Shown here: one piece after another, positions 9,375-19,630 of the stretch
Layout: each line of letters opens with the position of its first letter
Position numbering within the stretch: position 1 is the first letter of the stretch
NCBI GenBank assembly: GCA_019119875.1
Contig: DWWG01000012.1
Span: 25,214-89,213, forward strand
Direction: 5' to 3'
DNA: 64,000 nt
Origin: Candidatus Dietzia intestinigallinarum
Lineage (GTDB): Bacteria; Actinomycetota; Actinomycetes; Mycobacteriales; Mycobacteriaceae
Position numbers and translations under genes: made by a program
The notes under the pieces: generated by a model
What the model was told of the DNA's origin: nothing
What the model saw: only the letters and a program-made list of their open reading frames with translations
Database searches by the model: none

Positions 9375-9520
9375 GTCCGGCCTTCCAGTCGAGGGGTGAA
9401 ACGTGAGCCTAGTGCAGGGGTGCCGGGCCCGCGCTGCACCAGAGCGGAACCGGCGGCAGGCCCCCGAACGGGTCTGGTTCCCCGCACGGTTCCACCCCGG
9501 CGACGTGCCAGGGTGGGCAC

Positions 9521-10594
9521 ATGACGTCCTCGCTGTGCACCCGCTCCGACGGTGACCCCCGCCGGCTACCCGGCTTCCGCCGCACCTATGCGCCCGGGCG
9601 CCTCACGCTCGGACTCGGCTTCCCTCTGCGCACCCGGGGCGACGCAGCGGCCGCCGATGAACTGGACGCGCAGGTGGCGGCGGCCCGCGCCGCCGAGGAC
9701 GCGGATTTCGCCGCCCTCTACGCCCGTGACATCCCCCTGCGCGTGCCGTCCTTCGGCGACGTCGGTCAGGTCTTCGACCCGTGGACCCACCTGAGCTACA
9801 TGGCGGCGCACACCTCGCGCATCGCCCTGGGGACGGCCGGCATCGTGCTACCGGTGCGGCATCCACTACACGTGGCCAAGGCCGCCGCCGGCCTCGACAG
9901 GATCACGGGTGGACGTCTCCTGCTGGGCCTGGCGTCCGGCGACCGCCCTGAGGAGTTCCGGGCGTTCGGTCTCGAACAGGGCGAACGCGGCGAGAGGTTC
10001 CGCGAGAACCTTCACGTCATGCGGCACGCCCTGACCACCGAGATGCGCGGCGTCCGTTGGTCCGGCGGCTGGATGCACAGCGCCGACGTGGTGCCCAAGC
10101 CCCTCGCCTCGTCGGTGCCGATCCTGATGGTGGGGTCGTGCCAGCAGAGCATCTCCTACCTCGCCGAGCACGGGGACGGGTGGATGACCTACCCGCGTGA
10201 CTTCGACGCGCAACGCCGCACCGTTGCCCGGTGGAGGGAGCTGACGGCGGCATTCGCGCCGTTCGCCCAATCGTTGCAGATCGACCTGTCCGAGAACCCG
10301 GGGGAGACCGCGTCCCCGATCAGCTTCGGATTCCGCATCGGACGCAACGCGTTGATCGAGCACCTGGGCGACCTGCAGGGAATCGGGGTCAACCACGTGC
10401 TCCTGGGCATCGGCGCGAGCACCCGTCCGGTCCGCGAGGTGATCGACGAGCTGGCCGAGCACGTCGTGCCCCATTTCCGCGCACTGGACGGCGAGGGGCG
10501 CCACCCCGTGCGGGGGTTGGAGCCACCGGGGCGGCACGCGAGTGAGCAGGGCCAGATGGCCGACTGGCGACGTGGAGACACCCGCAGTCCCTAG
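9521..10594 (+). CDS. LLM-class (luciferase-like) oxidoreductase, BA3436-type
   Basis: LYARDIPL...[48 protein letters not shown]. Confidence 0.85.
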
Positions 10595-12381: not shown

Positions 12382-13236
12382 TCAGCGGCCCCGGGCCATG
12401 GCCACGAGACCGGCGAGAGTGAGTCCGGCCCGGGTGCCGCCGTCGCACAGGATGTCCGTTCCCGTGAGGTATCCGGGTCTGGTGCTCGCGCAGAACGCGA
12501 GCACCTCGGCGATCTCCTCCGGTTGCCCGAACCGCTCGAGCGCGGCGAACCGGAGCATCTCCTCGGACCCGGTCTTCTTCTCCAGCCGGCCCATGTCGGT
12601 GTCGAAGCTGCCGGGGGAGACGGACAGGATGCGCGCGCCCCGGGCGCCGAACGCGGCCGCCATCCGGGCGGAATACCAGATCACGAACGCCTTGCTCAGC
12701 GAATAGGCGGTACCGCTCGCACCGCGTCCGGTCAGTTCCGCGATCCGGGTCAGGCGTGAGGCCATCCGGTGGGAGTCGGTCAGCGCGGTTCGGAAGACCG
12801 GAGTCGGAAGAAGAGCTCGGGGCATCATGTGGCCGGCCACCGAGGCCACGTTGACCAGCGCCGACCCGGGACGTGCAGAGGCGAGGGCGGCCTCGGTGAC
12901 GTTCACGGTTCCGAGCGCGTTGATCCGGACGATCGCCTCCGCGTCGCCCATGGAGGGGCTCACCCCGGCGGCGTGGACCACCGCCCGGGGAGTCCCGAGC
13001 GTGTGCGCACCGGCGAAGACCGTGTCCACCGCGGCCCGGTCGGTGATGTCGCACACCATGCCTGTCGCGTCGACGTGGAGTTCCGCCAGGTGTTCGACTG
13101 CCCGGTCGAGGACCGCCCTGTCCAGGTCGACCAGCACGACGTGGTGGTCCCGACCCAGGATCGCGGCCGTGGCAAGCCCCATGCCCCGGCCGCCCCCGGT
13201 GATGATCGCGGTGGGAGCGGTGTCGCCTGTGGTCAT
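12382..13236 (-). CDS. short-chain dehydrogenase/reductase
   Basis: TGGGRGMG Rossmann motif, HAAGVS, YSLSK catalytic YxxxK. Confidence 0.9.
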   Translation of the reverse strand: MTTGDTAPTAIITGGGRGMGLATAAILGRDHHVVLVDLDRAVLDRAVEHLAELHVDATGMVCDITDRAAVDTVFAGAHTLGTPRAVVHAAGVSPSMGDAEAIVRINALGTVNVTEAALASARPGSALVNVASVAGHMMPRALLPTPVFRTALTDSHRMASRLTRIAELTGRGASGTAYSLSKAFVIWYSARMAAAFGARGARILSVSPGSFDTDMGRLEKKTGSEEMLRFAALERFGQPEEIAEVLAFCASTRPGYLTGTDILCDGGTRAGLTLAGLVAMARGR

Positions 13237-13266
13237 GTTCCTGTCCGTTCCGGCCCCGGTAGGGGC

Positions 13267-13953
13267 TCAGTCGAGGACTGTACCGTCGTCGAGGTGGGAC
13301 AGTGAGCCGTTGTCGGGCAACTCGCCGGTGGCGAGGTACACCAGCCGGTTGGCGATGCTCACCGTGTGGTCGGCGAAACGCTCGTAGTACCGGGCGAGCA
13401 GGGCGAGGTCGACGGCGGCCACGGAGCCGTACGGCCAGTCCTCGTCGGAGACCTGCTGCATCAGGTTGGAGTGGAGTCCGTCCACGGCGTCATCCTGGGC
13501 GTCGAGCATGAGCGCCTTCTCCACGTCGCGCTCGGCGAACAGGTCGGTCAGCTGTCGAGCCATGGCCCCGTCCCGTTCGGCGAGCTCGCGGATGAGGGGG
13601 ACGACGGCCTCGGGGACCACAGGATTGGGGTAGCGGCGGCGCGCGACCCGGGCGATGTGACCGGCGAGCGCGGCCATGCGGGTGAAGTGCTCGACGATGT
13701 AGATCCCCGACACCACCTGGCGCAGGTCGCGCGCGACGGGCGCCTCGAGGAGGAGCAGCTCGAACGCGTGCTGCTCGCTGACCTCGCGCAGTTCCTCCAA
13801 CTCGGCGGCCCCGTCGATCACCTCTGTCGCCGCGGTCTCGTCGCGTTCGAGTAGGGCTACGGTCGCACGATCGAGCAGTCGGGTGTTCGTCTCGCAGAAG
13901 CGAACGAGCTGATCAGAGAATTCGTCGAGTTTGGAACGGAAGACGGTACGCAT
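13267..13953 (-). CDS. phoU: phosphate signalling protein PhoU
   Basis: MRTVFRSKL..., EAPVARDLR, DDAVDGLH, RYYERFADH. Confidence 0.93.
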   Translation of the reverse strand: MRTVFRSKLDEFSDQLVRFCETNTRLLDRATVALLERDETAATEVIDGAAELEELREVSEQHAFELLLLEAPVARDLRQVVSGIYIVEHFTRMAALAGHIARVARRRYPNPVVPEAVVPLIRELAERDGAMARQLTDLFAERDVEKALMLDAQDDAVDGLHSNLMQQVSDEDWPYGSVAAVDLALLARYYERFADHTVSIANRLVYLATGELPDNGSLSHLDDGTVLD

Positions 13954-14059
13954 GCCACAACTGTAGTGAAACGAGTGTTGACCGGCGGCGTCGTTCTCCC
14001 AGTGTTCACCGGCAGACCACCTGGCGGGGGCACCCGGAGCGGCCTGCGGAGCGGCAGGA

Positions 14060-14089
14060 TAGACAGAACGGTCTGTTCGTGGCTACGGT
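14060..14089 (+). promoter_or_regulatory. sigma70-type promoter (-35 TAGACA, 18 nt, -10 TACGGT) overlapped by McbR-like operator TAGAC-N6-GTCTG
   Basis: TAGACAGAACGGTCTG at 14060-14075, 9/10 match to C. glutamicum McbR consensus TAGAC-N6-GTCTA. Confidence 0.6.
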
Positions 14090-14121
14090 TGGGCACCGAG
14101 CCGTCAATGAAAGGACATGAG

Positions 14122-14664
14122 ATGACCCTCTTCCTGTACGAGACGATCCCCTCTCAGGAGCAGCAGGCCGATCCTTCTGCGCTCATCGACGCCATCGGCG
14201 CCGCGCTGACGGGTGCGGGTGCCGAGGTCATCGAGACCCAGATCACCAAGGGCGCCGCCCGGATCTTCACCATCGTCGAACTGGCCGACGGCCCGGACGG
14301 CGCCTGCGCCACCGAGGCACCGGCCCTGGACGCCGCAGAGCTGGGCGCAGCTGAGGTCACCGAGCCCGCGCAGGTCCGCCTGGTGGGAACCGACCTCGAG
14401 ACCATCAAGGCCGCCCGCCCCGAGGCCGGCTACCTGGTGGAGTGGGATATCCCGGCCGAGATCGACATGGACACCTACCTCACGCGCAAGAAGGAGAAGT
14501 CCCCGAAGTACGCCGAGATCCCCGAGGTCTCGTTCCTGCGCACCTATGTCCGCGAGGACACGGACAAGTGCCTGTGCTTCTACAACGCTCCCGACACCGA
14601 CGCGGTGGTCCGGGCGCGTGAGATCGTGTCCACTCCCATCTCGCGTCTGCACGAGCTGGCATGA
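14122..14664 (+). CDS. DUF4242-domain protein (about 180 aa, N-terminal extra domain)
   Basis: RBS AAAGGA; C-terminal YLVEWDIP...VSFLRTYVREDTDKCLCFYNAPDTDAVVRAR is a DUF4242/SCO4226-like pattern. Confidence 0.8.
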   Translation: MTLFLYETIPSQEQQADPSALIDAIGAALTGAGAEVIETQITKGAARIFTIVELADGPDGACATEAPALDAAELGAAEVTEPAQVRLVGTDLETIKAARPEAGYLVEWDIPAEIDMDTYLTRKKEKSPKYAEIPEVSFLRTYVREDTDKCLCFYNAPDTDAVVRAREIVSTPISRLHELA

Positions 14665-15797
14665 GCGCGCCCACGGCCAGCACTCTCACCCCGGATCTCG
14701 GCGCCCCGCGGGCGCGTCTTATCGCCGGCGATCTCGGTTCCGTCGACGCGGCGGAGCTTCGCGCGGTGATCGACTCGATCGCCGCGCGGGCCTCCGCCCT
14801 GGACCGCGCCGACGCGGACCTGCGGGAGGACATCTCCGCACTCGCCGGTCTCGGTCTCTTCGACGTGGACCGTACGCCGGTCCCCGTCGCCGCGACGATC
14901 ATCGAAGCCGTGGCGACGGAGAGTCTGGCCGTGGCGTTCGGCGCCTGGGCGCAGCGGATGACCGCGGCCTACCTGCGGCACGCCGCCGACCGGTCCGAGG
15001 CAGCCCAGCGGAGCTACCGGGCGGTCGCCGACGGCACCCGACCGGGCGTGACCGGCATGGCCGCCGCGCAGCGGCAGGTCGTCGGACTCGGGAACGTACC
15101 CATCACGGCCACCCCGGTCGAGCGCGGCTACCAGATCGACGGGCCGATCGCGTGGGCGTCCAACGTGTACCCGGACAGCACCATCGTGCTGGCGGCCAAC
15201 ACCGCGGACGGCCGCAGCCTCGTCCTGACCTTCGAGGCCTCGACCCCCGGCGTCGAGATCCGTTCCGCTCCGGACCTTCTGGCGCTCAACGCGACCGCCT
15301 CCACGATGATCGGACTCGACGGCGTCGTGGTTCCTCACGAGCAGGTGCTGGGGGAGGATCTGGGGGACTTCCTGTCCGGCGTGCGACCGCAGTTCCTCGT
15401 CCTGCAGGCCGCCTTCTGCTCCGGCGTGGGTGCACGCTCGCTCACCGAGGCCGCCGGACGACTCGAGGGGCTCGGTGCCTTCTACTCGGACGAGCACGCC
15501 GCGCTGTCCGAACGGCATGACCACATGCACTCCGAGCTCCATCGACTCGCCGCGGCGCCGGCGGAGACGGATGCGGAGACGGAGGCTATGCTGACCGACT
15601 TGCTCCTCCTGCGCCTCGACGGCGCGGAGATCGCCCCCGCCGCGACACGGCTCGAGGCGGTCCTGTGCGGCGGCATGGGGTACGCGCAGGGGGCACCCGC
15701 CAACCGCCGTATGCGCGAGGCGGCCTTTCTCCCGGTGCAGTCCCCGTCGCAGTCGCAGCTGCGCTGGGAGCTGGACCGACTCGGGGTGGAGGCGTGA
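14661..15797 (+). CDS. acyl-CoA dehydrogenase-fold flavoprotein (non-canonical)
   Basis: ATGA overlap; GYQIDGPIAWASN, ALNATAS, GGMGY, RRMREA ACAD-fold motifs. Confidence 0.82.
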   Translation: MSAPTASTLTPDLGAPRARLIAGDLGSVDAAELRAVIDSIAARASALDRADADLREDISALAGLGLFDVDRTPVPVAATIIEAVATESLAVAFGAWAQRMTAAYLRHAADRSEAAQRSYRAVADGTRPGVTGMAAAQRQVVGLGNVPITATPVERGYQIDGPIAWASNVYPDSTIVLAANTADGRSLVLTFEASTPGVEIRSAPDLLALNATASTMIGLDGVVVPHEQVLGEDLGDFLSGVRPQFLVLQAAFCSGVGARSLTEAAGRLEGLGAFYSDEHAALSERHDHMHSELHRLAAAPAETDAETEAMLTDLLLLRLDGAEIAPAATRLEAVLCGGMGYAQGAPANRRMREAAFLPVQSPSQSQLRWELDRLGVEA

Positions 15798-16543
15798 GCT
15801 CGGCGGTCCTCGAGCGTCCGGTTGCCGTCAGTGTCACCGGTCTGCAGCACCGCCTCCCCGGGGGACGGACACTGTTCGACGATCTCGAGCTGCGGGTCCG
15901 GGAGGGGGAGTCGCTCGTGCTCCTGGGCCCGTCGGGAGTGGGTAAGTCGACGCTGTTGCGACTGCTGGCGGGACTCGAGCACCCCGCCGGTGGAGAGCTG
16001 CGGATGGGCTCACGTCCCACGGGCGGAGGCGGTGGGCACTCGTACGCGGTCGTGTTCCAGAAGCCCCTGCTCTACCCGTGGCTGTCGGTGCGCGAGAACG
16101 TCGCCCTGGGCGGCCGGTTCCGCGCACTTCGCGGCCGGGTGGACTCCTCGTACGTCGACGAGTTGCTCACCCATTTCGGGATCTCGGACCTGGCCGACGC
16201 CCGGTCCGACCAGATCTCGGGTGGCCAGGCCCAGCGGGTCGCGGTGGTCCGCGCAGCGGCGACGCGTCCGGAGATCCTTCTCCTCGACGAGCCCTTCAGT
16301 GCACTGGACCCGGTGACGCGCGCGGACTCACAGCGATGGTTGGTCGGCGTGACCGCCGATCTCGGCGTCACGACGATAATGGTGACCCACGACGTCGACG
16401 AGGCTCTGGTGGTGGGCTCCCGCATCGCGTTGCTCGGTTCGTCCGGCCGCGTTCAGCAGGAGTGGGCCAACCCCTCCCACGGCACCGGCGATTCGGATCC
16501 GGTCCTCCGAGAGGACATCCTGGCCGCTTACCGAACGGCCTGA
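15794..16543 (+). CDS. NitT/TauT-family ABC transporter ATP-binding protein
   Basis: GTGA overlap; GPSGVGKST, VFQKPLLYPWLSVRENV, ISGGQAQR, LLLDEPFSALD, VTHD. Confidence 0.93.
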   Translation: MSSAVLERPVAVSVTGLQHRLPGGRTLFDDLELRVREGESLVLLGPSGVGKSTLLRLLAGLEHPAGGELRMGSRPTGGGGGHSYAVVFQKPLLYPWLSVRENVALGGRFRALRGRVDSSYVDELLTHFGISDLADARSDQISGGQAQRVAVVRAAATRPEILLLDEPFSALDPVTRADSQRWLVGVTADLGVTTIMVTHDVDEALVVGSRIALLGSSGRVQQEWANPSHGTGDSDPVLREDILAAYRTA

Positions 16544-16551
16544 GCGCGGCT

Positions 16552-17739
16552 GTGAAGAAGGATCCGGGGGCGCGCGGCCCCGTACTCGACCGACGCTCGC
16601 TACTGCGTACCGGCGGCGCACTCGCGGTGGGGGCCGGAGCCCTCGGCGGCGCGGCGACGCTGGGCAACCTCGTCTCCGCGGCGACCGCCCCGCGTGGGAC
16701 CGCGACGGAGGAACTGCGGATCGGCTACCTGCCGATCACCGACGCCGCGCCGCTTCTCGTCGCACACGGCGACGGCTACTTCGAGCAGCAGAAGCTCATC
16801 GTCGGACGACCGGTGCTCTTCCGCTCCTGGTCGTCACTCATGGAGGCCTTCCTCACCGAGCAGGTGGACCTCATCCACCTGCTGATGCCGTCGGCAGTGC
16901 AGCTGCGTTACGTCCTCGGCGCGGACGTGAAGGTGGTGAGCTGGAACCACACCGGCGGCGGCGCGATCACCGTCGCTCCGCACATCAACGAGGTCTCTGA
17001 GCTCGCCGGCACGCAGGTCGCGATCCCGGGCTGGTGGTCGATCCACAACATGCTCCTGCAGCGGGTGCTGCGTTCGAACGGACTCACGCCGGTCGCCCGG
17101 AGGTCCCCGAGCCGATCCGAGGGCACCGTCGAACTGGTCGTCATGGGCCCGGCGGACATGATCCCGGCGTTGGCCACCGGGTCGATCTCCGCGTTCACCG
17201 TCGCCGACCCCTTCAACGCCGGAGCCGTCGCCCGGGGCGTCGGTTCCCTGCACATGCTCCTGGACGAGGTGTGGCGCGACCACGCCTGTTGCGTGACGGT
17301 CGTGCAGGAGCGTCTCGTCGACGAACGCCCGGACACGGTCCAGGCGTTGGTCGACTCGGCGGTCGCCGCGCAGTTGGGGATCCGGGCCGATCGCTCGGCT
17401 GCCGCCGCGATCCTGTCCGGTCACGGCTACCTCCCGCAGCCCCCGGCGGCCGTGGAGGTCGCCATGGCCGGGACGGTCGCCGATCCCGCGGGAGGCCCCG
17501 ACCGGCCCCGGATCGACTTTCACCCGTACCCGTTCCCGAGCTTCACCGAGGAACTGGTCCGCCAGATGCGCCAGACGGTCGTCGACGGTGAGACCCGATT
17601 CCTGGACGGTCTCGACCCGGCGACGGTTCACCGCGAACTCGTCGACGACCGGTTCGTCCGGGCCTCGATCGAACGACACGGCGGTCCGGCCGCCCTCGGA
17701 CTCCCCACCTCGCTCACCCGACACGAACGGCTGATCTAG
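16552..17739 (+). CDS. NitT/TauT (NrtA/CmpA-like) ABC substrate-binding protein with twin-arginine signal
   Basis: DRRSLLR Tat motif plus hydrophobic stretch; LRIGYLPITDAAPL, WRDHACCV; start codon uncertain (GTG 16552). Confidence 0.88.
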   Translation: MKKDPGARGPVLDRRSLLRTGGALAVGAGALGGAATLGNLVSAATAPRGTATEELRIGYLPITDAAPLLVAHGDGYFEQQKLIVGRPVLFRSWSSLMEAFLTEQVDLIHLLMPSAVQLRYVLGADVKVVSWNHTGGGAITVAPHINEVSELAGTQVAIPGWWSIHNMLLQRVLRSNGLTPVARRSPSRSEGTVELVVMGPADMIPALATGSISAFTVADPFNAGAVARGVGSLHMLLDEVWRDHACCVTVVQERLVDERPDTVQALVDSAVAAQLGIRADRSAAAAILSGHGYLPQPPAAVEVAMAGTVADPAGGPDRPRIDFHPYPFPSFTEELVRQMRQTVVDGETRFLDGLDPATVHRELVDDRFVRASIERHGGPAALGLPTSLTRHERLI

Positions 17740-18636
17740 ATGACTGGTACGCACGCGCACTCCCCCTCGGGGGACGGTCCCGGCACGGCTGAGCTCTCCA
17801 CGCCCGCCCCCGTGTCGTCGGTCACCGGCCCGGCGTCGCCCTCCCGCGGTGTGCGGTTCCGGAACCGCGGCGCCGTTTCCGGATCGAGCCCGGTGGCCCG
17901 ATGGGGTGCAGGTCTACTCGGTCTGCTGCTCGGGCTCGGGGTGTGGGCTGTGCTGACGTCCGGACTGGTGACCGACGACCCGGTCATCACCGGGATGTCG
18001 CCCGTGAAGACCTGGTCGGGGTTCGCTGATCTCCTCGACCGCGGGGTCCTGCTCTCGGATGCGGCGGTGAGTCTCTACCGACTGGTGTCCGGGCTCGCGG
18101 TCGCCTCGCTGCTCGGGATCCCGCTCGGTCTCTGGCTCGGACTGCGCAGGCGCGCCGAGGCGGTGGCGGGCCCCCTCGTTCAGTTTCTGCGGATGGTCTC
18201 CCCGCTGTCGTGGGCCCCCGTGGCGATCGCGGTGTTCGGTATCGGCAGCGAGCCGGTGATCTTCCTCGTGGCGGCAGCCGCGGTCTGGCCGATCATGCTC
18301 TCGACCTCGTCCGGCGTGCACGCGGTGGATCCGGGCTTTCTCGACGTGGCCCGGACCATGGGGGCGAACGGCTGGGAGCGACTGACCCGGGCCGTGATCC
18401 CCGCGGTGCGGCCCTCGATCCTCGGCGGCATCCGGCTGGCGCTCGGCACCGCCTGGATCGTGCTGGTGCCCGCCGAGATGCTCGGCGTGCGGTCGGGACT
18501 CGGATATCAGATCCTCAACGCCCGCGACCAGCTCGCATACGACCAGGTGATGGCGGTGATCCTCGTGATCGGCGTGCTCGGGTTCGCGCTCGATTCACTG
18601 TCCCGACTGCTGCTTCGCGGCGGCGCCGCGCGGTGA
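17740..18636 (+). CDS. NitT/TauT-family ABC permease
   Basis: SPLSWAPVAI, EAA-type loop ARTMGA, WIVLVPAEMLG. Confidence 0.92.
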   Translation: MTGTHAHSPSGDGPGTAELSTPAPVSSVTGPASPSRGVRFRNRGAVSGSSPVARWGAGLLGLLLGLGVWAVLTSGLVTDDPVITGMSPVKTWSGFADLLDRGVLLSDAAVSLYRLVSGLAVASLLGIPLGLWLGLRRRAEAVAGPLVQFLRMVSPLSWAPVAIAVFGIGSEPVIFLVAAAAVWPIMLSTSSGVHAVDPGFLDVARTMGANGWERLTRAVIPAVRPSILGGIRLALGTAWIVLVPAEMLGVRSGLGYQILNARDQLAYDQVMAVILVIGVLGFALDSLSRLLLRGGAAR

Positions 18637-18707
18637 GTGCGCCACGCGGCCGCGACCGTCGAGGGTCGTCTCCGCGGGGCCCCTCCCTCGCACGTCCCTC
18701 TACGTGC

Positions 18708-18983
18708 TCAGTGGTCGCGCAGGGCCTTGATCAACTCGTCCTTGTTCATCGAGGAGCGGCCCTCGATATCCAACTCGCGGGCGCGCTCGTGCAGCTCGTC
18801 CACGGTCCAGTCCTCGTAGGACCCGGCCTTGCCGCCGCGGTGGCCGACCTCGGACCGGGACTCGTTGGCCGAGGCGTTGGCGATGCGTGCGGCCTTCTCC
18901 TTGCTCGCGCCGTCATCACGCAGCGCCTCGTAGACCTCCTCGTCCTTCACACTCGATGACTGCTGGTCGGACTCCTCGGGCAT
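18708..18983 (-). CDS. small protein with C-terminal Rho-termination-factor N-terminal-like domain
   Basis: RBS AAGGAGG; YEALRDDGASKEKAARIANA and WTVDELHERARELDIEGRSSMNKDELIKAL. Confidence 0.82.
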   Translation of the reverse strand: MPEESDQQSSSVKDEEVYEALRDDGASKEKAARIANASANESRSEVGHRGGKAGSYEDWTVDELHERARELDIEGRSSMNKDELIKALRDH

Positions 18984-19098
18984 GGCGTCCTCCTTCTCGT
19001 CGCGCCGTGCTGGTGGACATCCTCGGGTCTATCAGGACTGCCGCGGCCGGGCCACCGGTCGTACGCGGGCGGCCGGAGAGCCGACCCGGATCGAGGTC

Positions 19099-19581
19099 TC
19101 AGGTCCGCCGCAGCACCGAACGCAGGTGGTGGGTCATGAGTTGGCCGACCGCGGCCATGGCGAACGTGGTGGTGACCGCGTCGCCGGTGAACTCATAGCG
19201 CCGGTGCGTGGAGCTGACCTGCTTGGCGGTGGCGCTGTTGAGCAGACTGGCGTGGAACTCGAGCACCACCGTGTCGCCGTCGGCGTGCACGGTGCCCTCG
19301 CACAGTTCGGTCTGACCGGTGGGCTGGGCCAGCACGAACTCGGCGGTCCCGTCTCCGGGGATGCGCAGGTACCCGGTCTCGGTGTGCATGGGTGCCCCCG
19401 ACGGACCGCGGGTCTTCTGGACGTAGTGCAGGAACGGCTTGCCGACGTCGGTGAAGGTGATCTCCTCGCTGTAGGAGAAGTCGTCGATCGTCGGGTAGGA
19501 GCCCGCGCCCTCGCCCCTCCAGGTGCCGAGAAGCGACGCCACGGGGGCTAGATTGGGGGCGAGATCGGCAGGGGTGTCCAT
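19099..19581 (-). CDS. nitrobindin / FABP-like (DUF1794) heme beta-barrel protein
   Basis: LLGTWRGEGAGSYPTI, PMHTETGYLR, HLRSVL with heme-ligand His. Confidence 0.88.
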   Translation of the reverse strand: MDTPADLAPNLAPVASLLGTWRGEGAGSYPTIDDFSYSEEITFTDVGKPFLHYVQKTRGPSGAPMHTETGYLRIPGDGTAEFVLAQPTGQTELCEGTVHADGDTVVLEFHASLLNSATAKQVSSTHRRYEFTGDAVTTTFAMAAVGQLMTHHLRSVLRRT

Positions 19582-19630
19582 GTCCTCGACAGTAGGCGAC
19601 CCTCCTCCCGCTCACAGTCGGACCGTGGAC

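Follow-up and report, generated by a model that had tools for sequence, protein, structure and literature searches.

The genes g1 to g5 form a five-gene operon that is real and transcribed. We give about an even chance to the reading that it scavenges a small sulfur-containing solute under the control of a repressor, by means of an importer, a cytoplasmic flavoprotein and a thiol partner. The genes all lie on the + strand between 14122 and 18636 of the window (the whole 64,000-nt stretch of DNA analysed), and the features are collected in Table 1. Starting at the 5′ end, g1 and g2 overlap by ATGA and g2 and g3 by GTGA, followed by a gap of 8 nt between g3 and g4 and a gap of 0 between g4 and g5. 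Reading of the sequence thus bears out the preliminary description of five same-strand genes with ATGA/GTGA overlaps or gaps of 8 bp or less. All four junctions are bridged by RNA contigs from a public RNA run, with a depth that drops from 254 to 31 along the operon, against 0 for the promoter gap and 5–25 for the flanks. The neighbours of the Dietzia operon are phoU, ilvD, SDR, DUF7218 and peroxynitrite isomerase genes, and inspection of the neighbouring genes revealed no sulfur gene. There is no McbR-type or other sulfur regulator within the window, and no flavin reductase gene in the cluster. The Cys+Met content of the operon proteins is 1.2–2.8%, compared with 3.8% for the neighbouring genes.

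Table 1. Positions of the operon genes and of the elements upstream of g1
Feature	Position	Strand	Description
Operator-like palindrome TAGACAGAACGGTCTGT	14060-14076	.	single copy in window; conserved upstream of g1
RBS of g1, GAAAGGA	14109-14115	+	6 nt 5′ of ATG at 14122
g1	14122-14664	+	180 aa; two-domain; C-terminal half DUF4242/SCO4226-like
g2	14661-15797	+	378 aa; divergent ACAD-fold protein
g3	15794-16543	+	249 aa; ABC transporter ATPase; PF00005 107 bits
g4	16552-17739	+	395 aa; NMT1_2 (NrtA/CmpA-like) binding protein; PF13379 139 bits
g5	17740-18636	+	298 aa; ABC transporter permease; PF00528 86 bits

The order of the five genes is kept in 73 of 79 loci of related genomes (the best 79, all from Actinobacteria), and the arrangement is not due to chance. 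Together with the RNA contigs over every junction, this agrees with the earlier claim of a conserved unit. The same five protein families occur in Staphylococcus and the Bacillales (S. aureus, Neobacillus and Paenibacillus). The counterparts span three bacterial phyla, across which the linkage of g2 to the transporter is kept. In Burkholderia, Methylospira and Janthinobacterium the order is AraC, CMD/AhpD-like, ACAD-like, ATPase, NMT1_2 binding protein and permease; in these three Burkholderiales/Methylococcales genomes an AhpD-like CxxC protein takes the place of the DUF4242 protein, and the first gene is the sole difference. The loci of Burkholderia cenocepacia, Methylospira mobilis and Janthinobacterium fluminis, with the published signal peptide of PA2328, served as stand-ins for P. 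aeruginosa DNA, and the PA2331–PA2327 layout of the preliminary description is real in Proteobacteria. In Neobacillus the gene after the ACAD-like one is a genuine cysK (402 bits, cut-off 351), and the Burkholderia cluster adjoins ACAD-type-2 and luciferase-like monooxygenase genes. About 13 Rhodococcus loci have CbiM/PDGLE genes on the upstream side. In four Dietzia species g2 is retained, whereas g1 and g3–g5 have been lost.

The C-terminal half of g1 matches PF14026 (DUF4242/SCO4226-like) with 69 bits (cut-off 28.5, residues 104–178 only), spans positions 1–75 of the 76 in the family model, and includes K-C-L-C-F-Y as an invariant motif. No family matches the N-terminal half, and no similarity is detectable between the two halves. 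The nickel-binding SCO4226 of Streptomyces coelicolor has 82 residues; g1 differs in being twice as long and always paired with an ACAD-like gene, and phmmer gave no match between g1 and the SCO4226 chain in the PDB at E up to 10. Over its full length g1 is 42% identical (E 5e-39) to a 170-aa S. aureus protein, equated with SA0165 through gene order. A g1–g2 fusion protein exists (P0183). No similarity was found between g1 and the proteobacterial CMD/AhpD-like first protein, and both contain a conserved cysteine pair, CxC in g1 and CxxC in the other. The proposal of an interchangeable Cys-containing first protein accordingly holds for these two non-homologous proteins.

Since g2 has no Pfam match, and hence none to the Pfam ACAD families, profile and structural comparison were needed to reveal its ACAD nature. 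The AlphaFold model (pLDDT 91.2) superimposes on ACADs in Foldseek with TM 0.74–0.79. The profile matches isovaleryl-CoA dehydrogenase (IVD) in the PDB with E 8e-26 and DszC with 5e-10, while the SfnB model scores g2 at 25 bits (cut-off 431). Both flavin motifs, W-A-S-N and G-G-x-G-Y, are kept, and g2 is probably a flavoprotein. Neither catalytic-base position holds an acidic residue: Ser361 aligns adjacent to the SCAD residue preceding its catalytic Glu, and the position of IVD Glu254 is aligned to Q/T/A/S. Judged from profiles, classical ACADs are closer relatives of g2 than DszC and SfnB are. The ACAD fold in the earlier likening of g2 to those two enzymes is upheld; the particular kinship is not.

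The transporter comprises g3 (ABC_tran), g4 (NMT1_2) and g5 (BPD_transp_1), all three of which resemble NitT/TauT-type models. The NCBIfam matches of g3 all fall far under equivalog or subfamily cut-offs, and the nearest models to g5 (SaoP, NtrB, SsuC and TauC) are each under cut-off. The twin-arginine signal of g4, RRSLLRTGGALAVGAGALG, was read off the translation; PA2328 is a validated Tat substrate (PMC6085387). An invariant H-A-C-C motif is found in g4, and within the one alignment examined at residue level H-x-C-C is shared by its close homologues and 3un6. The best match of g4 in the PDB is 3un6, an S. aureus protein (3.5e-16), and its best characterised relatives there are NrtA, CmpA and the C-domain of NrtC (E 1e-9 to 1e-12).

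The palindrome TAGACAGAACGGTCTGT is located 46 nt upstream of the g1 start codon. The window contains a single copy of it, where chance would give 0.03; it matches TAGAC-N6-GTCTA with one mismatch (chance expectation of this looser pattern, 0.25). Its position is kept in all Dietzia loci that retain g1, in Mycobacterium sensu lato and in one Gordonia locus; the gaaagga ribosome binding site is likewise kept in Dietzia loci. In other genera it forms the core of a 20-bp palindrome, TAGACAGACCGGTCTGTCTA, which in the mycobacteria and the Gordonia locus sits between g1 and a divergent TetR gene. Such a TetR regulator, with a conserved Cys within the motif FRGCLYANAATEF, adjoins the operon in 59 non-Dietzia loci. 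The McbR-like box of the preliminary description is therefore present and conserved, but as the core of a longer palindrome beside a dedicated TetR gene it need not be a site at which the global regulator McbR acts. For the local regulators in Proteobacteria and Bacillales the nearest models are the oxidant sensors RclR and RrpB, with matches far under the family cut-offs (99 bits versus 400; 74 versus 175).

The S. aureus operon SA0165–SA0169 (NWMN_0115–0119; SAOUHSC_00135–00139), described as ‘ssuABC-like’ and CymR-regulated, with its binding protein as PDB 3un6, comprises the same five families. Its DUF4242 protein shares the two-domain build and K-C-x-C of g1, its ACAD-like protein is 22% identical to g2 (E 3e-21) and likewise has no Pfam match, and its binding protein has motifs in common with g4, including the Cys-Cys pair. 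It differs in order (DUF4242, ATPase, binding protein, permease, ACAD-like), in its binding protein, a lipoprotein of 324 aa that lacks the C-terminal extension and Tat signal of g4, and in its control by CymR. Its label of putative sulfonate or taurine importer derives from annotation only. The PA2332 and PA2331–PA2327-type cluster is identical to that of Dietzia in gene order and tight spacing. The Burkholderia binding protein is 46% identical to g4 and also has a twin-arginine signal, similar to the published one of PA2328, while the ACAD-like protein is 32% identical to g2. This cluster differs in its unrelated AhpD/CMD-family first protein, in a Cupin_6-AraC regulator instead of TetR, and in P. 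aeruginosa in its additional control by quorum sensing and cyanide.

The sulfur link finds backing in the published regulation of these counterparts. SA0165–SA0169 are part of the CymR regulon, and sulfide represses them 11.5- to 34-fold (PMC5480029). Expression of the transporter genes in S. aureus rises when cells are starved of sulfur and when cymR is mutated, and in 2026 the transporter is still labelled a ‘putative sulfonate importer’ (bioRxiv 10.64898/2026.05.20.726469). In a PA2504 mutant PA2328–PA2330 fall along with the sulfur-assimilation regulon (PMC8466066). This evidence consists of transcript levels in other species, with no phenotype among it. The low Cys+Met content of the operon and the cysK and monooxygenase neighbours in Neobacillus and Burkholderia also count in favour. 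Against it count the lack of sulfur genes nearby, of a sulfur regulator in the window and of a flavin reductase in the cluster; the fact that g2 resembles classical dehydrogenases more closely than it does the known sulfur monooxygenases, DszC and SfnB; the cyanide and quorum-sensing induction in P. aeruginosa with the RclR/RrpB-like local regulators; and the retention of g2 alone from the operon in four Dietzia species. Like the operon, SsuEADCB, TauABCD, MsuEDC/SfnAB and DszABC combine a NitT/TauT-type importer with cytoplasmic flavin enzymes and are on when sulfur is short, and DszC, SfnB and MsuC have the ACAD fold. The operon differs in having no SsuD- or TauD-type enzyme, in a g2 family that has IVD and SCAD as closer relatives than DszC, and in an accessory Cys-pair protein that has no counterpart in those systems. 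We found no functional study in the literature to 2026, in line with the preliminary description, whose interpretation overall is partly supported.

The operon could instead serve pseudohalides, importing thiocyanate or cyanate or handling cyanide or hypothiocyanite. The compound would then be detoxified, or its sulfur or nitrogen freed, by the flavoprotein and thiol partner; we consider this unlikely. The nearest characterised structural relatives of g4 bind nitrate or bicarbonate, and thiocyanate and cyanate resemble the NrtA, CmpA and CynA substrates in being small, linear anions. The proteobacterial regulator is nearest to RclR, a sensor of reactive chlorine species. In P. aeruginosa RclR is reportedly also responsive to HOSCN and drives rclX, an AhpD-like peroxidase gene. 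Endogenous HCN induces only 12 genes in P. aeruginosa, PA2328–PA2331 among them (Frangipani 2014, as cited in PMC10687435). Cyanide uses up sulfane sulfur, so that this induction could be secondary sulfur starvation. Transposon mutants of PA2328, PA2330 and PA2331 grow with NaOCl not significantly differently from wild type, and cyanase, thiocyanate hydrolase and nitrilase genes are absent from every locus inspected. Thiocyanate is also a sulfur source, so this explanation overlaps with sulfur scavenging.

A defence module against thiol-directed oxidants or electrophiles is decidedly unlikely. Here redox-sensing local regulators would induce a Cys-pair protein and a flavoprotein for repair or detoxification, and a protective or replacement compound would come in through the importer. 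The AhpD-type CxxC and the CxC of g1, the conserved Cys of the actinobacterial TetR and the proximity of other regulators to RclR and the redox factor RrpB would fit. Organosulfur uptake genes are reportedly induced in P. aeruginosa NaOCl transcriptomes. The regulator scores are nevertheless far under cut-off, the S. aureus operon responds to sulfur supply via CymR, and the Pseudomonas mutants showed no NaOCl phenotype.

It is very unlikely that the system handles nickel, zinc or cobalt, or a complex thereof, through the Cys-Cys/His g4 and a nickel-binding DUF4242 protein. In its favour, SCO4226, the founding DUF4242 protein, binds four Ni per dimer (PMC4186839). One could also point to the H-x-C-C of g4, to 3un6, reportedly deposited with zinc bound, to one source that calls a Bacillales homologue ‘Metal ABC transporter’, and to the CbiM/PDGLE genes in Rhodococcus. 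Yet this cobalt/nickel neighbourhood is limited to one lineage, and no NitT/TauT-type importer is known to transport metal cations. Sulfide elicits a zinc-limitation response in S. aureus, yet the operon is repressed, not induced.

The idea that a common nitrate, nitrite, bicarbonate, taurine or alkanesulfonate importer simply stands next to a conventional fatty-acyl-CoA dehydrogenase, as the Pfam families, nearest NCBIfam names (nitrate, sulfonate and taurine transporters) and database label of g2 (‘acyl-CoA dehydrogenase family protein’) would have it, deserves hardly any weight: all transporter scores are far under cut-off (SsuA_fam 92/163.5; ntrB 125/209; ntrCD 167/292; TauA 19/490), g2 lacks a Pfam ACAD match and both catalytic-base acids, its linkage to the transporter persists across three phyla, and nitrate/nitrite reductase genes, ssuD and tauD are absent from the clusters. 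NrtABCD, CmpABCD and CynABD share a binding protein of about 400 aa of the NMT1_2 type, but similarity is low, the nitrate permease and ATPase models are under cut-off, and the operon has no fused NrtC-type regulatory domain and other genomic partners.

The sulfur-scavenging proposal builds upon the gene structure, conservation, junction-bridging RNA contigs and folds observed here, and on the published regulation of homologous operons elsewhere. From these we infer repressor binding, the sulfur nature of the Dietzia substrate and all of the chemistry. A TetR-type repressor, whose gene is adjacent in most genera and would be located elsewhere in Dietzia, would bind the palindrome immediately 5′ of the promoter region until released by a signal. 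Outside the cell the Tat-exported g4, with a fold like that of nitrate and bicarbonate binders and its invariant His-x-Cys-Cys, would capture a compound that is small and probably anionic, which the g5 permease and g3 ATPase would bring in. In the cytoplasm the ACAD-fold flavoprotein g2, for which standard acyl-CoA dehydrogenation would not be possible, may act alongside the small Cys-pair protein, g1 (CxC) in Dietzia and the AhpD-like CxxC protein in Proteobacteria. Together they would turn the compound into a product that can be used for making cysteine.

The five-gene operon is real, conserved, expressed and recurrent in the transcriptomes of pathogens. It lies on the forward strand at 14122-18636 as genes g1 to g5, which encode in order a DUF4242-containing protein, a protein resembling acyl-CoA dehydrogenases (ACADs), and the ATPase, binding protein and permease of an importer. 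The genes were called by reading window positions 13200-19600, and their order and coordinates agree with the preliminary description. The window has a G+C content of ~70%. Its proteins have their closest relatives in Dietzia, g2 being 92% identical to a gene of Dietzia aurantiaca. On the 3′ side the top NCBIfam match of the THAP4-like neighbour is a peroxynitrite isomerase model (194 bits versus a cut-off of 225); this gene and the DUF7218/Rho_N gene are syntenic even in Dietzia species without the transporter. A luciferase-like monooxygenase gene is located 3.5 kb 5′ of the operon, beyond phoU, an SDR gene and ilvD. An Rfam scan of the whole window revealed no riboswitch or other Rfam element, so the operon has no riboswitch leader. 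A consensus promoter scan found no sigma-70-like promoter, and a terminator scan gave two terminator-like matches, both on the wrong strand and intragenic.

Features of the operon and its surroundings (window coordinates)
Feature	Position	Strand	Remarks
Luciferase-like monooxygenase gene	9413-10594	+
phoU	13267-13953		divergent, 5′ of operon
Upstream box	14060-14076
g1	14122-14664	+	180 aa
g2	14661-15797	+	378 aa; ATGA overlap with g1
g3	15794-16543	+	249 aa; GTGA overlap with g2
g4	16552-17739	+	395 aa; 8-nt gap behind g3
g5	17740-18636	+	298 aa; gap to g4 of 0
Genes for DUF7218/Rho_N protein and THAP4-like haem-binding protein	18708-19581	-	convergent, 3′ of operon

A library of one genome per species, scanned with search patterns from actinobacterial proteins alone, yielded 471 confirmed places with relatives of g2. 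The best 79 of these 471 loci were fetched, and 73 of the 79 have homologues of g1, g3, g4 and g5 around g2 with order and strand preserved, bearing out the conserved neighbourhood that had been proposed. The 73 loci are from Dietzia, Rhodococcus, Nocardia, Gordonia, Tomitella, Mycobacterium sensu lato, Mycobacteroides, Mycolicibacter and Actinacidiphila. At E below 1e-30 the g2 family comprises 283 clusters at 50% identity, and it occurs in three phyla. The recurrent extra genes at the 62 non-Dietzia loci include no universal sixth enzyme; CbiM/PDGLE genes and alpha/beta hydrolases are found there through lineage-specific synteny only. The CbiM plus PDGLE gene (a cobalt/nickel ECF-type uptake component) lies 5′ of a TetR gene at locus L025 (4297-6642) and ~12 other Rhodococcus loci, a curious presence beside the nickel-binding reputation of DUF4242.

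Genes g3-g5 have been lost from Dietzia natronolimnaea and from Dietzia sp. 2505, sp. PP-33 and sp. SLG310A2-38A2 (loci L008 (7700-9150), L009, L014 and L016, syntenic with window 13968-18706), where phoU and the downstream genes are retained. Nearly all of g1 is also lost in L008, L009 and L014, the loci with the 5′ side present. The g2 reading frame is kept in all four species, cut by the contig end in L016. What is left of g1 at L008, ~44 codons, retains the ATGA overlap with g2, and the putative operator has a degraded left half. In these species g2 may have a role independent of the importer, or decay may be in progress.

One public RNA-seq run, the metatranscriptome X15, holds near-identical sequence in contigs that cover 14198-18763 and span all four gene junctions. 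The assembler depth declines along the operon (254 to 31) and is 0 in 13908-14134, while in the flanks it is 5-25 (25 in phoU, 5-13 in the downstream genes). One well-expressed polycistronic transcript would give this pattern, the depth being a crude measure with DNA carry-over possible. The depth of the operon is well above that of its flanks, which suggests that it was derepressed in the X15 sample.

Pfam gives no match for g2, so its fold is shown by profile comparison and predicted structure. An AlphaFold model using 21 homologues (pLDDT 91.2, pTM 0.90) matches many ACADs in Foldseek (probability 1.00, TM 0.74-0.79, 15-20% identity), and the profile of the three-phyla family compared with the PDB finds isovaleryl-CoA dehydrogenase (IVD) at 8e-26, short-chain ACADs at ~1e-24 and DszC at 5e-10. 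These agree with the ACAD fold originally assigned to g2, whose modelled structure has the three-domain (alpha, beta, alpha) arrangement. The accompanying comparison with DszC and SfnB is not upheld. NCBIfam matches are faint, with SfnB (TIGR04022) at 25 bits versus a cut-off of 431, and because the profile favours IVD and short-chain ACADs far above DszC the family is an offshoot of the classical ACADs rather than of monooxygenases such as DszC and SfnB. No flavin reductase gene is present in any cluster inspected.

The W-x-(S/T)-N and G-G-x-G-Y motifs of ACADs contact the flavin. In g2 W165-A-S-N168 aligns with F-W-I-T-N of IVD and G337-G-M-G-Y with G-G-N-G-Y, and N168, G337 and Y341 are invariant across the three phyla; both flavin-contact motifs are thus kept in the alignment, and flavin binding is predicted. 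The catalytic Glu of standard ACADs occupies either the MCAD/SCAD position (Y-E-G-T) or the IVD/LCAD position (Glu254). When g2 is aligned to rat SCAD the last pair is Q360 and Tyr367, putting Ser361 opposite the catalytic Glu of the Y-E-G motif; family members carry S, A or T here. Opposite IVD Glu254 stands the residue following the invariant R242-P243, and it varies among Q, T, A, S, I, R, Y and V. Since both catalytic Glu positions are non-acidic in these alignments, it is highly improbable that g2 is an ordinary acyl-CoA dehydrogenase. It belongs to a separate ACAD branch, missed in g2 itself by the Pfam ACAD models.

The importer contains every component of the NitT/TauT type to which it had been assigned. 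The ATPase g3 matches ABC_tran (PF00005, 107 bits), the binding protein g4 NMT1_2 (PF13379, 139 bits) and the permease g5 BPD_transp_1 (PF00528, 86 bits), all above gathering. Membership of NrtABCD, TauABC or SsuABC was judged by NCBIfam equivalog or subfamily cut-offs, and every score falls below its cut-off (ntrCD, 167 versus 292; ntrB, 125 versus 209; SsuA_fam, 92 versus 163.5; SsuC, 110 versus 347; TauC, 109 versus 342; TauA, 19 versus 490); g3-g5 are therefore rejected as a characterised nitrate, taurine or alkanesulfonate transporter. The translation of g4 begins with a twin-arginine signal (RRSLLRTGG...). Its residues 243-246, His-Ala-Cys-Cys, are invariant across 70 actinobacterial homologues, and are replaced by Ala-Tyr-Cys-Cys in its best PDB match, 3un6, which is identical to the Staphylococcus aureus binding protein P0387. 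To our knowledge adjacent free cysteines are unusual in exported binding proteins, and the Cys-Cys pair of g4 may mark the ligand site.

Related clusters occur in other phyla. The S. aureus locus encodes in order a 170-aa SCO4226-like protein, ATPase, binding protein, permease and a 344-aa protein without a Pfam match. Over its full length g1 shares 42% identity with the SCO4226-like protein, and g2 shares 22% with the 344-aa protein (E 3e-21). In Neobacillus and Paenibacillus the transporter is accompanied by an HxlR-type regulator, an SCO4226-like protein and an ACAD-like protein. Proteobacterial clusters were reached via distant g2 relatives from a representative search; those of Burkholderia cenocepacia, Methylospira and Janthinobacterium contain a Cupin_6-AraC regulator, a CMD/AhpD-like protein, an ACAD-like protein, ATPase, NMT1_2 protein and permease. 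This matches the layout of Pseudomonas aeruginosa PA2332 and PA2331-PA2327, the latter being the operon named in the preliminary description. PA2327-PA2329 are NitT/TauT components in KEGG, PA2330 is annotated as an acyl-CoA/acyl-ACP dehydrogenase (PMC8466066), and the published signal peptide of PA2328, a validated Tat substrate (PMC6085387), resembles that of the Burkholderia binding protein. Compared with the Burkholderia proteins g2 is 32% and g4 46% identical, and the latter figure, which spans Actinobacteria and Betaproteobacteria, speaks for a single conserved ligand. The B. cenocepacia cluster is flanked by two Acyl-CoA_dh_2 genes and a luciferase-like monooxygenase gene (L080-L082, 9981-13116), a make-up typical of organosulfur oxygenase clusters.

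The first gene differs in the proteobacterial clusters. Residues 104-178 of g1 match PF14026 (DUF4242, now 'SCO4226-like') over model positions 1-75 of 76, with 69.3 bits versus a gathering threshold of 28.5. No family matches the N-terminal 100 residues, and a single-sequence structure model is poor (pLDDT 62). The sequence gives no support to a tandem DUF4242 structure, hhalign finding no similarity between the two halves. The proteobacterial first-gene proteins carry PF02627 and the TIGR00778 core domain with H-G-C-x-F-C-x-x-G-H; a CMD domain with a C-x-x-C-x-x-x-H active site, the AhpD/CMD feature tested, is found only in these counterparts. No similarity was detected between g1 and the Burkholderia CMD protein, and g1 is not of the AhpD/CMD family. 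In Proteobacteria the first gene is thus displaced by a non-homologous protein, with a conserved cysteine pair as the common feature, much as an interchangeable Cys-containing first protein had been envisaged. In P0183 (532 aa, from the representative search) a two-domain DUF4242 protein is fused to an ACAD-like protein. In P0249 (614 aa) an ACAD-like protein is connected to the ATPase by a linker of scrambled sequence, which may reflect an artefactual frameshift.

The box upstream of g1, TAGACAGAACGGTCTGT, occurs once in the window compared with 0.03 times expected. Alignment of the upstream regions of all loci gives its full 20-bp palindromic form, TAGACAGACCGGTCTGTCTA, whose spacing to g1 is constant across all Dietzia loci that keep g1, the mycobacterial genera and a single Gordonia locus. 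A divergent TetR-family gene directly adjoins the operon in 59 non-Dietzia loci, and the palindrome adjoins this gene in the mycobacteria and the one Gordonia locus. No such TetR regulator was found within 8 kb in Dietzia, nor in the 64-kb window (E up to 10), and a PDB search with TetR returned generic TetR structures only. Because a conserved palindrome and a divergent TetR gene adjoin the operon, the box is best read as the predicted operator of a dedicated TetR repressor. The actinobacterial TetR may be McbR-like in its HTH and FRG..NAATE(F/Y)P motif, which we take as a lead only. The literature pairs McbR, the global sulfur repressor of Corynebacterium, with TAGAC-N6-GTCTA, which the box fits with one mismatch; chance alone would yield 0.25 occurrences of this looser pattern in each window. 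Of the original 'McbR-like box' the TAGAC-N6-GTCT(G/A) spacing stands, but the conserved element is a longer palindrome, beside a divergent TetR gene in the mycobacteria and one Gordonia locus. The local regulator differs by phylum, being TetR in Actinobacteria, Cupin_6-AraC in Proteobacteria and HxlR-type in Bacillales.

Published data link the counterparts to sulfur supply. The CymR regulon of S. aureus includes SA0165-SA0169, whose expression drops 11.5- to 34-fold in response to sulfide (PMC5480029), and a 2026 preprint reports that the transporter genes, still termed a putative sulfonate importer, are up with sulfur starvation and in a cymR mutant (bioRxiv 10.64898/2026.05.20.726469). SA0165 is labelled a DUF4242 protein and SAOUHSC_00139 an acyl-CoA dehydrogenase. 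In a P. aeruginosa PA2504 mutant PA2328-PA2330 fall along with the sulfur-assimilation regulon (PMC8466066); PA2330 and PA2331 are also core quorum-sensing-activated genes. The literature found assigns no substrate or enzymatic activity to the homologues, in keeping with the preliminary description, which knew of no functional characterisation.

The favoured model is a TetR-repressed sulfur-scavenging system, in which the importer would serve a cytoplasmic flavoprotein with a Cys-pair partner. Proteins made during sulfur starvation tend toward few sulfur amino acids. Supporting details are the scarcity of Cys+Met in the proteins of the operon (1.2-2.8% versus 3.8% in 12 neighbouring genes, a small sample), the sulfur-monooxygenase neighbours in Burkholderia, and cysK (cysteine synthase A, 402 bits versus 351) directly 3′ of the ACAD-like gene in Neobacillus niacini (L085, 9426-10349). 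The logic of the operon is like that of the ssu, tau, msu, sfn and dsz scavenging systems; however it is a member of none, as its transporter fails the ssu/tau equivalog tests and the Cys-pair partner has no counterpart in any of them.

Four other readings were considered. A pseudohalide system is unlikely, yet PA2328-PA2331 are listed among 12 genes induced by endogenous cyanide (Frangipani 2014, as cited in PMC10687435), and the binding protein is NrtA/CmpA-like. The local regulators speak both for this reading and for an oxidant-defence module, which we consider quite improbable: the Cupin_6-AraC protein (L081, 4380-5339) is nearest RclR, a sensor of reactive chlorine species, and the HxlR-type protein (L085, 6988-7437) is nearest the redox factor RrpB, both far below the family cut-off. 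Growth of P. aeruginosa PA2328, PA2330 and PA2331 mutants with NaOCl is not significantly different from wild type. A metal-related system has still slimmer prospects; it would draw on the nickel binding described for the DUF4242 protein SCO4226 (in PMC4186839), the His/Cys-Cys motif of g4 and the CbiM/PDGLE genes at Rhodococcus loci. That a plain nitrate, taurine or sulfonate transporter lies beside a plain fatty-acid enzyme is barely credible, being contradicted by the missed NCBIfam cut-offs, the absence of a catalytic acid in g2 and the linkage of g2 to the transporter across phyla.

A bolder reading, which we regard as a long shot, is that the operon encodes a new pathway by which a pseudohalide or an inorganic sulfur anion is utilised, thiocyanate being the most attractive candidate. 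The NrtA-like binding protein would capture the anion with its reactive Cys-Cys pair, the new ACAD-fold flavoenzyme branch would free the sulfur together with the interchangeable dithiol protein (DUF4242 or AhpD-like), and the released sulfur would go to cysteine synthesis. If true, this would account at once for the induction of the P. aeruginosa genes by cyanide and for the response to sulfur starvation in S. aureus, and would provide the first physiological role for DUF4242.

The module is widespread. It is present in two major pathogens, and there it turns up repeatedly among the transcriptome responses to sulfur starvation, sulfide, cyanide and quorum sensing, under the guessed label of 'sulfonate/nitrate transporter'. 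It is tractable, with transposon mutants available in both S. aureus and P. aeruginosa, the 3un6 crystal structure and a predicted operator-repressor pair. Solving the operon would fill a gap among nutrient or detoxification routes, would assign a function to both a DUF family and an unrecognised branch of the ACAD superfamily, and would explain why two unrelated Cys-pair proteins replace one another.
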